Shown: positions 1-18,988, counted from the first letter of the stretch. The stretch is 18,988 nucleotides of DNA from a candidate division WOR-3 bacterium (GCA_049969615.1 JBMFOM010000031.1:1-18988), one strand, 5' to 3'. The notes: a model not told the origin generated them from the sequence alone. Translations and numbers: made by a program.

Positions 1-2
1 CG

Positions 3-68
3 GCCCTCGCCAGGAAACTGGTTGACCTCGTCTTCACAGTCCTCACTACGGGGGTCTATTATGAATAA
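3..68 (+). mobile_element. 3' end of an IS110-family (IS116/IS110/IS902) transposase CDS, truncated by the window edge
   Basis: Frame 3 reads ALARKLVDLVFTVLTTGVYYE* (TAA 66-68), matching the A-[VL]-A-R-K-L-x-x-h-h-[FY]-x-h-L-x-x-G-x-x-Y C-terminal helix typical of IS110 transposases. Only 21 codons are visible and it is not in the ORF track. Confidence 0.7.
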
Positions 69-100
69 AATATTGGAGGGTTGATAAAGTAGCAATAACT
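69..100 (+). mobile_element. Putative IS110 right end (outward -35 box, CT core)
   Basis: Short AT-rich stretch after the transposase stop with TTGATA at 81-86 and CT at 99-100, the layout known for IS621-like right ends. Clear homology to repeat copy B starts at this CT. The boundary is inferred. Confidence 0.45.
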
Positions 101-261
101 TGCTGGTCTGAACTAGAAGCACCTTGTCCAAGAGAACAGGATTCTAAAAGGGACCCCAGAAGAATCTCACCACGGGAACATTCCCTCAGGGTTCTCTTTT
201 TGTCATGATGAGGTTCCAGGATAGGGACAAAGCACAAACAGGGATTTTTCAGGGGTTTCAT
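76..261 (+). repeat. Dispersed intergenic repeat, copy A
   Basis: The reverse complement of 99-258 aligns to 11645-11807 at about 70% identity by hand, with exact blocks TTGTCCCTATCC, CAAAAAGAGAA and CCTGAGGGAATG. 82-125 aligns to the reverse complement of 16927-16970 (35/44). 235-261 aligns to the reverse complement of 9898-9924. Confidence 0.85.
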
Positions 262-410
262 AGGGTATTCACCAAAGCCTTGCTCTGCCTTGACCGATTG
301 CGAGGGGAACACGTTAAGTTGTTGTGCCCTAAGAACTTACAGGCTATCCTAAATCGGACCTTACCTCTGGGGTGGGAATATGTGAGATCTCAGGGTCTCC
401 AAGTGATAGT

Positions 411-9897: not shown

Positions 9898-9924
9898 ATG
9901 AAACCCCTGAAAAACCCGGTTTGT
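9898..9924 (-). repeat. Dispersed intergenic repeat, partial copy D
   Basis: ATGAAACCCCTGAAAAACCCGGTTTGT versus reverse-complemented copy A ATGAAACCCCTGAAAAATCCCTGTTTGT and copy B AAACCCCTGTAAAATTCCGGTTTG. Lies between convergent genes. Confidence 0.7.
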
Positions 9925-9929
9925 CAGTC

Positions 9930-10785: not shown

Positions 10786-11646
10786 ATGAAAGCTGATGAC
10801 ATCAAAAAAGTTGGAGTTGTGGGAGCAGGCACCATGGGGAACGGAATAGCCCATGTTTTCGCGCTTAAGGGTTATGATGTGGTTCTCGTTGATATATCAA
10901 AGGACATCCTGGACAAGGCCATCGCCACCATCACCGGCAACCTGGACAGGCAGGTAAAGAAGGAGATAATAAAGCCCGAGGACCGGGACGCGGCACTCGC
11001 CAGGATAAAGACCTCTACTGACCTCTCCGAGCTCAAGGACTGCCAGCTTGTTGTTGAGGCCATTGTTGAGAAAGAGGACATAAAGACAGACCTCTTCAAG
11101 AAACTGGATTCCATCCTGGGGCCTGAGGCCATCCTTGCCTCAAATACCTCCTCCATATCCATAAACAAGCTGGCCGCGGCAACAGGAAGGCCCGGGAAGG
11201 TCGCGGGGATGCACTTCATGAACCCGGTCCCCATGATGAAGCTGGTAGAGCTTGTCAGGGGCAAGGATACCTCGGACGAGACCATGGCCGTGATAAAAGA
11301 GCTCTCGGAGCGCCTTGAAAAGGTCCCGGCCATAGTCAACGACTCGCCGGGATTCGTCTCAAACAGGGTCCTGATGCCCATGATAAACGAGGCCGCGCAT
11401 GTGCTCATGGAGGGCGTCGCTGAGCCTGAGGCCATAGACACGGTGATGAAGGTCGGGATGAACCACCCCATGGGCCCCTTGACGTTGGCGGACCTCATTG
11501 GCCTTGATGTTGTAGTGGACATCCTGAACTATATCCACAAAGAGAAAGGCGATCCCAAGTTCAAGCCAGCCCAGATACTCGTTGACAAGGTCAAGGCCGG
11601 CGAGCTGGGCAGGAAGACAGGGAAAGGGTTCTACACCTACCAGTAA
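10786..11646 (+). CDS. hbd: 3-hydroxybutyryl-CoA dehydrogenase
   Basis: VVGAGTMGNGIA Rossmann motif, EAIVE, ASNTSS, GMHFMNP (catalytic His), PGFVSNR, NHPMGPL, DLIGLD and GRKTGKGFY. Confidence 0.95.
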   Translation: MKADDIKKVGVVGAGTMGNGIAHVFALKGYDVVLVDISKDILDKAIATITGNLDRQVKKEIIKPEDRDAALARIKTSTDLSELKDCQLVVEAIVEKEDIKTDLFKKLDSILGPEAILASNTSSISINKLAAATGRPGKVAGMHFMNPVPMMKLVELVRGKDTSDETMAVIKELSERLEKVPAIVNDSPGFVSNRVLMPMINEAAHVLMEGVAEPEAIDTVMKVGMNHPMGPLTLADLIGLDVVVDILNYIHKEKGDPKFKPAQILVDKVKAGELGRKTGKGFYTYQ

Positions 11647-11824
11647 ACCCCTGTAAAATTCCGGTTTGCCCCTTGTCCCTATCCGGGAGTCCTGTTATAG
11701 CAAAAAGAGAATATCCTGAGGGAATGCCCTCGTGACGGGATTTTCCAGGGCCCATTCCTTAGAACCCTCTTATCCTGGATGGCGTAGTCCTGGCTCAAAC
11801 CAATAAGGGTTATTCTGGGCCTGG
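11645..11824 (-). repeat. Dispersed intergenic repeat, copy B (fills the convergent intergenic region)
   Basis: About 70% identical to the reverse complement of 99-258. Contains a long imperfect inverted repeat (TCCAGGGCCCA...AACCCTCTTAT / ATAAGGGTT...TGGGCCTGGA, 11744-11824) and a GAGGG-AATG-CCCTC hairpin. Confidence 0.85.
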
Positions 11825-11831
11825 ACGGACC

Positions 11832-16886: not shown

Positions 16887-16892
16887 CTGATA

Positions 16893-16921
16893 ATTATAAC
16901 CCATTTCCTGCGTAGGATCAA
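16893..16921 (-). promoter_or_regulatory. sigma70-type promoter for the tusA-like/thiC operon (leaderless)
   Basis: TTGATC-17 nt-TATAAT-6 nt-GTG. Confidence 0.7.
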
Positions 16922-16926
16922 ACATT

Positions 16927-16984
16927 AAGGTGCCCTTGGTTCAAACCAGTGAGTTATTATTACTTTATCAGAAGTCTCAACCCT
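16927..16984 (-). repeat. Dispersed repeat, partial copy C (spans the putative IS end/flank junction)
   Basis: The reverse complement of 16927-16970 matches 82-125 at 35/44 with no gaps, and all 9 mismatches are transitions. AGGGTTGA is also shared across a 9-nt indel. Confidence 0.8.
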
Positions 16985-18911: not shown

Positions 18912-18973
18912 GTGATCCTTCACCCGGCTGTCCTCTAGCTGGGTGATCCTTCACCCGGCTGGCCTCTAGCTGG
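18912..18973. repeat. Tandem duplication, 2 x 31 bp
   Basis: GTGATCCTTCACCCGGCTG[T/G]CCTCTAGCTGG at 18912-18942 and 18943-18973, with one mismatch and no spacer. Confidence 0.95.
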
Positions 18974-18988
18974 CCCCTGATTGACCAC

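Follow-up and report, generated by a model that had tools for sequence, protein, structure and literature searches.

Where does the mobile element at the start of this locus end, into what has it inserted, and how was that site chosen? The window, by which we mean the whole analysed stretch of 18,988 nucleotides, is contig C31 of a candidate division WOR-3 bacterium assembly (2.06 Mb in 203 contigs, 98% complete). Positions 1-81 are the right end of an IS110-family element that continues past the window start, followed directly by a copy of a MITE-like repeat. We consider it very likely that an IS110-type IS with roughly a dozen copies in the genome sits here at a TG core in the 5' inverted end of the MITE, and that an RNA most likely guides it to its target, as in IS621. 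The junctions of the IS ends, the site specificity, the guide matches, the conserved fold and the natural retargeting of a relative are each demonstrated below. The features of the window on which the argument draws are the following.

3-68, plus strand: tail of the transposase gene, the last 21 codons and the stop (66-68), from translation.
69-81, plus strand: short non-coding right end of the IS, in which 73-81 (TTGGAGGGT) is the left-donor half-site.
82-83, plus strand: TG core dinucleotide common to IS end and target, from comparison of junctions with the empty site.
82-259, plus strand: MITE copy A, profile positions 9-187, whose first 8 nt (GAGACCYC) lie beyond the far side of the IS.
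260-264, plus strand: ATAGG, candidate 5-bp target duplication of copy A, identical to 5 nt at the C146 left junction.
9900-9929, minus strand: MITE 3'-end fragment, profile positions 157-187, nhmmer E 0.00073.
11645-11813, minus strand: MITE copy B, profile positions 22-186, nhmmer E 2.5e-36.
16927-16978, minus strand: MITE copy C, a 5' fragment, profile positions 1-52, nhmmer E 4.2e-10.

Translation of 3-65 gives ALARKLVDLVFTVLTTGVYYE, followed by the stop at 66-68, and 13 nt separate this stop codon from the core. Window 1-81 is found at 10 contig ends including the window's own, nine of them at 100% over the overlap and C102 at 98.5%; the matching left end of the IS is found at 13 contig ends. 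In C63 the match ends at nt 72, where a second small repeat has inserted, and the terminal 13 nt recur beyond it. This insert (C63:78-190) belongs to a second MITE family, is 113 nt long and lies inside the IS right end between the stop codon and TTGGAGGGT; the family has its own inverted ends, and BLASTN matches it 36 times across the genome with identities of 77-96%. The longest copy of the right end, at a C12 contig end, reaches 42 nt further than the window and yields a 35-aa tail. In NCBIfam this tail hits NF033542 'IS110 family RNA-guided transposase' and nothing else, with E 0.0039 over profile positions 311-341 of 343; its 16.4 bits are well below the 140 required of a whole protein, as is natural for so short a piece. 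Pfam gave no match to the same 35 residues. This match at the very end of the profile bears out the first-pass annotation, which had taken the upstream reading frame for an IS110-family transposase tail. A search of 1.8 billion representative sequences returned P0002 as the sole match of the tail; we rejected it as unrelated, as it has odd low-complexity Pfam matches and no BLASTP alignment.

The sequence that follows the IS belongs to a large repeat family. From 59 full-length copies we derived a profile of 187 positions, which hits the genome 219 times (nhmmer, E <= 1e-3), with 82 hits of full length, 130 containing the 5' end and 155 the 3' end, together 26.4 kb. Copies are 75-85% identical to that of the window. 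The consensus starts with 5' GAGACCyCTGATAAAGTAG and finishes with GGGATTTTTCAGGGGTTTC at the 3' end; its inverted ends, GAGACCCCTGATAAA and the reverse complement of the 3' end, GAAACCCCTGAAAAA, agree at 13/15 consensus positions. An exact 5-bp direct repeat flanks 10/59 full-length copies compared with 0.26% of mismatched control pairs, and a match of at least 4/5 flanks 14/59 compared with 2.4%. The flanking duplication is thus enriched yet confined to a minority of the 59 copies, and the copies are old (75-85% identity). Being small, non-coding, present in many copies and bounded by terminal inverted repeats, the features by which MITEs are recognized, the repeat is read from its sequence as an old MITE-like element. 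It is older than the IS insertion and probably travels by another (DDE-type) route. Among copies, the IS ends share 98.5-100% identity and the flanking MITE copies 75-85%. A search of 40 relatives turned up no copy of the repeat, save for one 32-nt match in a same-genus genome. Two same-genus genomes with the neighbouring gene (76-80% identical) show neither the repeat nor similarity to the intergenic region at those loci, and no orthologous empty site was found in them.

Within the window, the profile matches copy A at 81-259 (profile 8-187, E 1.7e-49). Copies A and B align by BLASTN at 74% over 136 nt (E 9e-16) and the MAFFT alignment agrees; the homology of 100-261 with 11645-11807 pointed out in the first-pass annotation is indeed far beyond chance, both by this E-value and by the profile match to copy B. 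Copy C contains a near-cognate, unoccupied site, GAGACTTC-TG-ATAAAG, with its TG at 16970-16969 and one mismatch to the predicted left target guide. Copy C is also marked by inverted-repeat pair I2, and the fragment at 9900-9929 by pair I11 (95% over 20 nt). In the middle of the MITE (consensus ~83-100) the 3' inverted end (169-187) recurs in forward orientation (CCCCTGAAAAATCCC), so that the 3' 105 nt form a shorter nested MITE-like module, which explains the many partial repeat matches. Directly after copy A, at 260-395, lies a second repeat family of ~140 nt with 17 further genomic copies at 83-93% identity, several of them adjoining a MITE 3' end. Beside copy C, at 16890-16926 (minus strand), there is a promoter-like cassette, TTGATCC...GGGTTATAAT; the same motif also flanks many repeat copies and IS junctions elsewhere in the genome.

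Comparison of empty and occupied sites defines the junctions. The empty site, GAGACCYC-TG-ATAAAG, lies in the 5' inverted end of the repeat; the left junction reads GAGACCYC-TG-TATATC and the right junction GGAGGGT-TG-ATAAAG. Because the bases flanking TG differ between IS and target on both sides, the overlap is exactly these 2 nt. The IS has no terminal inverted repeats and no target duplication of its own, starting TG-TATATCAC on the left and finishing TTGGAGGGT-TG on the right. All 12 right junctions (10 full-length and 2 from mini-elements) consist of TTGGAGGGT (TTAGAGGGT in C102) followed by TG-AT, with the ATAAA continuation after the core in 11/12. Beyond TG-AT, the copies at full-length right junctions diverge like any two repeat copies, and 7/10 of these flanks match the MITE profile from position 9. 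The C12-end copy is followed after TGAT by unrelated DNA (TGATCCGG) outside any repeat. In C82 and C63 only the first 9-10 nt of the repeat follow the IS; in C82 a match to the repeat 3' end appears ~25 nt further on, and the insertion there may be in a short deleted repeat copy. The 120 BLAST copies that reach the repeat 5' end align from window 82 (TGATAAAG...), most of them preceded by GAGACCYC; the repeat in the window is therefore 82-259, not 100-261.

On the left side the flank does not continue as the reverse complement of 11808-11830; the junctions show unique DNA, then GAGACCYC-TG-TATATCACTTTACC... GAGACCYC precedes the core in 14/16 left junctions, the exceptions being C93 (AAGACCCC) and the C3 mini-element (TGGCCTCC), and the core is TG in 15/16. 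The one TT core, in C156, belongs to a left junction with the same flank as that of C29, and this shared flank may reflect strain variation or a duplicated locus. Every repeat-associated copy of the IS faces the same way with respect to the repeat. The genome contains the exact site GAGACCYCTGAT 65 times, where ~0.5 would be expected, and as the C48 junction is one of these, ~64 are unoccupied. GAGACCYC-TGTATATC was also considered as the inverted end of a separate DDE-type IS and dropped because the mini-elements join that end to TTGGAGGGT. At C117 ~1213 (minus strand) one repeat copy reads GAGACCTC-TGTAAATC-TGATAAAC, in which the exact insertion point holds 8 extra nt similar to the 8 nt that open the IS left end (TGTATATC); these may be an excision footprint.

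The two sides of individual insertions can in part be paired. ATAGG at 260-264 is also the 5 nt directly before GAGACCCC at the start of C146, the sole match among 15 left flanks (~15/1024 by chance). Its presence in both places suggests, on sequence grounds, that C146 is probably the other side of the window insertion. C59 and C4 pair likewise via GAAGG. In total such 5-bp pairing of left and right junctions was found for 2/6 right flanks with a full repeat, and the other 4 have no partner. Overall, copy A is an occupied site, as previously proposed, with the IS right end joined to the repeat at the TG core.

The body of the IS is absent from the 203-contig assembly, and searches of the bacterium's own genome with PF02371 and PF01548 gave 0 matches. 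Left-end DNA was found in none of 40 relatives searched, and exact 32-nt and 27-nt patterns gave 0 matches in public metagenome and genome contig collections, which may omit this genome's records. Two public hot-springs metagenome runs from different studies contain contigs that carry the left end through TTGGAGGGTTGAT into CCCCATATACAG..., and this stretch is therefore internal in full-length copies. A 282-nt contig of run X1 includes the whole left end and the left flank of contig C60; after ...GGAGGGTTGAT it continues for 44 nt, the first 30 being CCCCATATACAGATGGCAGGCCATGGATCT, and a 119-nt contig of run X2 has the same continuation. A 16-nt motif from this continuation occurs at one place in the genome, the end of contig C48, where we find the following feature.

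C48:14247-14391 (L041:1486-1630): IS copy without left end, GAGACCTC-TG joined at the donor-guide position, with 7 extra nt, CATATAC.

The order in C48 is GAGACCTC-TG-AT, CATATAC, the X1/X2 continuation, a ribosome-binding site and an open frame. The last 26 aa at the contig end share 92% identity with P0003, which is a partial protein of 113 aa and scores 36.5 bits with PF01548 (cut-off 29); the 37-aa N-side fragment from C48 itself had no match in NCBIfam or Pfam. Full-length relatives of P0003, namely P0004, P0005 and P0007, have 382-383 aa and both PF01548 and PF02371, and P0005 and P0004 score 172 and 165 bits with NF033542 (cut-off 140). The 35-aa tail from the C12 contig end aligns 18/34 with residues 349-382 of P0004 (383 aa) and shares its end point. 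Since full-length relatives of the P0003/P0004 group match both, the two assembled fragments, tail and C48 frame, thus appear to belong to one IS110-family protein type; the protein of our element itself is represented by these two fragments. The C48 copy lacks ~84 nt, the first ~28 codons including YGID, a motif present in L042/P0003, so at least this copy is defective. A profile of the relatives' transposases detected distant IS110-family genes in 11/272 genomes of the phylum.

From the core to the ribosome-binding site or start, the left end comprises ~220 nt of non-coding sequence. For folding we used a composite of two loci, the C12 mini-element and the C48 tail with its 7 extra nt. The predicted fold has a closing helix, GUGGUCGGAG with CUCCGACCAC, and two arms, in which CCGGGUGAG pairs with CUCACCCGG and CCAUGGCC with GGCCAUGG. 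Taken alone, the mini-element sequence does not fold exceptionally well (z -1.67). Rfam gave no family for the mini-element locus, with three sub-threshold matches (SNORA69, PART1_3, PK-BYV). Along this RNA we located four predicted guides, whose matches were anchored on the core and compared with those in 20000 first-order random sequences.

RNA position 60: guide 1, GAGACCUCUG, target left half plus core; random 2/20000.
RNA position 89: guide 2, AUCA, complement of TGAT; random 10760/20000.
RNA position 129: guide 3, UUGGAGGGUUG, IS right end plus core; random 2/20000.
RNA position 152: guide 4, AUAUACA, reverse complement of TGTATAT at the left-end start; random 161/20000.

The core-anchored flank matches of guides 1-4 are 8, 2, 9 and 5 nt, and all four together were found in 0/20000 random sequences. 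The right target guide (AUCA) is a 4-nt match and alone not significant; a requirement for TGAT only on the right-hand side agrees with the C12-end insertion outside any repeat (TGATCCGG). Guides 1 and 2 lie in the internal loop of the first arm and guides 3 and 4 in the second arm. The U at guide position 7 could accommodate both variants of GAGACCYC, C or T, by pairing with the base on the bottom strand. According to the available text of Durrant et al. 2024 (PMC11208160), each loop of a bridge RNA forms 8-9 nt of pairing between its 5' side and the bottom strand and 4-7 nt between its 3' side and the top strand; both sides include the core, and the target loop precedes the donor loop. The same loop order is given for the IS110 type in the available part of Siddiquee et al. 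2024 (PMC11187229). The order of guides in the left end, and the bottom strand being matched first, fit the rule as that text of PMC11208160 states it. With a core at the CT, the guides would match around 99-110 of the window; they match around 74-85 instead. Together with the site-specific junctions, these matches support, at the level of sequence, the proposal that the repeat is the programmed target of this recombinase.

A relative provides a natural comparison. The P0005 element lies on L042, a contig of 1797 nt from a Desulfobacca acetoxidans MAG, and its RNA region is 76% identical to that of our element. Among 49 consensus pairs, we found 44 unchanged, 4 compensatory, 1 one-sided and 0 broken; two of the compensatory pairs are in long helices, where C-G replaces U-A in the closing helix and A-U replaces G-C in the first arm. 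Sequence differences cluster in the first loop (AGACCCCUG and UUUUUUCA). L042 has guides other than those of our element, and they agree with the flank of its own element, TGAAAAAT. To the right of that element stands TGAAAAATCCCG (TG-AAAAATCCCG), the inverted end of a MITE-like module; ~150 nt beyond lies CGGGATTTTTCAGGGGTTT, and the repeat profile matches that stretch (nhmmer E 1.2e-7). The flanking module and the changed loop place L042 at the equivalent point of a sister inverted-end variant, with its guides changed to match: the targets are …CYC-TG-ATAAAG here and …CCC-TG-AAAAAT in L042, in hosts of different phyla. The right end TTGGAGGGT and its guide are the same in both elements, except that the second core letter of the guide is A, not G, in L042. 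The left end of L042 is cut by the contig start, and from its loop sequence ACACACA its element is predicted to start TG-TGTGT.

Could the specificity be real and yet be set mainly by the protein or by DNA structure, such as the small hairpin AGTAATAACTTACT beside the site, rather than by an RNA guide? The right guide match is only 4 nt, and for ISPpu10 a target-encoded stem-loop adds specificity, as described in the available text of 10.64898/2026.03.19.712850. We nevertheless consider this explanation unlikely, as the 10-nt target match and the 11-nt donor match each arise in 2/20000 random sequences, the loops of L042 change with the flank while the helices are kept, and the C12-end copy lies outside any repeat yet at TGAT. 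A structural contribution is compatible with RNA guidance and is no replacement for it.

In the preferred reading, an IS110-type element has inserted, with neither inverted ends nor a duplication of its own, at TG inside the 5' terminal inverted repeat of the 187-nt MITE, and window 82-259 is the older MITE that received it. The left end is predicted to encode an RNA of ~185 nt with a closing helix and two arms, which would be made and would bind the recombinase. A circular intermediate would form, and its joined ends would read TTGTAT, 18 nt, TATAAT, a predicted junction promoter, with TAGAAA as a second candidate -10; among the contigs of the public runs no such joint was reported. The right end is short and would supply the TTG of this possible -35 box, in line with the first-pass annotation. 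The loop of the first arm (GAGACCUCUG, AUCA) would pick the target, and the second arm (UUGGAGGGUUG, AUAUACA) would match the IS ends.

Two further readings place the boundary of the IS elsewhere. If 69-261 were the IS's own long non-coding end in the style of IS1111, the genomic repeats would be non-autonomous derivatives, and it would be natural that most IS copies have the repeat directly after them. This is very improbable: identity falls from 100% to 75-85% at the junction (window 81-85), the C12-end copy has no repeat after TGAT, and C82 and C63 share 9-10 nt only. Moreover, the repeat also stands alone genome-wide, with 82 full-length profile hits, and most of the 59 aligned repeats begin 8 nt earlier, with GAGACCYC, have inverted ends and in 10/59 cases carry the exact 5-bp duplication. 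The other reading, that the IS extends to a CT core at 99-100 and that copy B (11645-11807) is its empty target, takes its appeal from the start of A/B homology near 100 and from CT being the core of IS621, and we give it next to no credence because 120 5'-complete copies, IS-free or IS-linked, align from window 82, the C12-end copy diverges right after TGAT, copy B lacks profile positions 1-21, and the guides match 74-85, not 99-110. TTGATA...CT is present at 81-100 as described, yet TTGATAAAGTAGCAATAACT (81-100) is mostly repeat and not IS, recurring from 82 on in IS-free 5'-complete copies including copy C; the core is TG at 82-83 and the CT lies inside the repeat. Likewise, homology with copy B does start near this CT; the point is not an IS boundary, and copy B, missing the first 21 positions that hold the site, has no target site.

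Several copies of the IS are defective in a particular way. Two transposase-less mini-elements of 167 bp are fully assembled (C12:12443-12617 and C3:23285-23452). In both, the left end runs into ...CGTTGGAGGGT-TG-ATAAA and then a MITE copy on the right; on the left the C12 mini-element keeps GAGACCTC, and the flank of the C3 mini-element is non-cognate (TGGCCTCC). They finish ...GCCCGTTGGAGGGT, the left-end context, not ...AAATATTGGAGGGT, the context of the true right end, and are therefore left ends that stop precisely where the donor guide is encoded. C48 shows the reciprocal arrangement, in which the target left half and TG are joined to the sequence following the donor guide. TTGGAGGGT plus TG recurs within the left end as the predicted left donor guide, and the DNA encoding this guide necessarily copies the element's right end and core. 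Judged by sequence, the mini-elements and C48 are what recombination at an internal right-end look-alike would give. Plain deletion between 13-nt direct repeats would also give the mini-elements, but would not yield C48. We tentatively propose, while leaning slightly against it, that the left-donor-guide DNA (13 nt, TTGGAGGGTTGAT) is used as an internal pseudo-right-end, shedding 167-bp elements and leaving copies of the C48 type. The 167-bp form keeps the predicted promoter, the predicted target-binding arm and proper donor ends. Recombination at half-matches and partial circles are reported in the available texts of 10.64898/2026.08.31.748434 and 10.64898/2026.08.14.744561, respectively, and as far as those texts go neither names guide-encoding DNA as a boundary. 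The genome contains what would be expected to arise if a donor-like sequence within the element were used; if this were general, every bridge-RNA element would have a built-in site that makes guide-only hitch-hikers and crippled copies of itself.

The IS also explains many contig breaks in the assembly. Among the contig ends of the whole genome there are at least 10 further groups with common terminal sequences (35, 27, 11, 7, 7... ends), and several multicopy elements account for most of the breaks in the assembly. Some of the other multicopy elements also lie inside the MITE, for example those with ends beginning CCCAACTTTGACACC. At the far end of the window, 18912-18988 contains two tandem 31-nt units (GTGATCCTTCACCCGG...); these last 77 nt are common to contigs C121, C156, C146 and C13 and are the end of another multicopy element, so that the window is bounded by repeats on both sides.

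IS621, ISPa11 and ISPpu9 target REPs, and IS4321 and IS5075 target the inverted ends of Tn21-family transposons. Like IS4321 and IS5075, our element, predicted to encode a DEDD transposase, takes up a single position and orientation within an inverted end that belongs to another mobile element. Those two belong to the IS1111 group, with a downstream non-coding region and subterminal inverted repeats, and occupy 38-bp ends of large transposons, whereas the element here is IS110-type and sits in a 187-nt MITE. As in IS621 and its relatives, so far as the available text of PMC11208160 describes them, a long non-coding stretch on the left precedes the transposase gene, the right end is short, each junction has a 2-nt core, the predicted target loop lies before the predicted donor loop, and a promoter is predicted across the joined ends. 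Compared with IS621, the core is TG rather than CT, a long helix is predicted to close both arms into a three-way junction, and the target is a MITE inverted end rather than a REP; our element is known from sequence, its protein from two short fragments.

ISPpu9/MITEPpu9 and ISPpu10 of Pseudomonas putida are likewise multicopy IS110 members in a genomic repeat, according to the available portions of PMC12288879 and 10.64898/2026.03.19.712850; unlike here, their target in these portions is a REP or a conserved intergenic sequence. MITEPpu9, in the accessible sections of PMC12288879, is, like our mini-elements, a transposase-less small element with IS-type ends, probably moved in trans. There, however, MITEPpu9 has a separate sRNA gene downstream of the transposase gene, while our mini-element consists of the left end, broken off at the donor-guide sequence. 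The pairs ISEc11/ISXne4 and ISEc21/ISMch6 resemble our element and L042 in that RNA stems are kept and target-matching stretches differ in step with the flanks, as given in the available text of PMC11187229; unlike those pairs as described there, both targets here are variants of one MITE-type inverted end, with hosts in different phyla. Our literature search on IS110, MITE and bridge RNA returned ISPpu9 only and found no described IS110-type element with a MITE-end target.

The mechanism is known, and the element of the window is a clear further example of known behaviour. It provides a natural case of one mobile element programmed to the end of another, with ~64 exact sites still free in a 2-Mb genome, and in another phylum a relative has been redirected to a sister form of this type of inverted end. 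It also adds a thermophile-associated member to the IS110 family, with a TG core and a compact RNA predicted to form a three-way junction.
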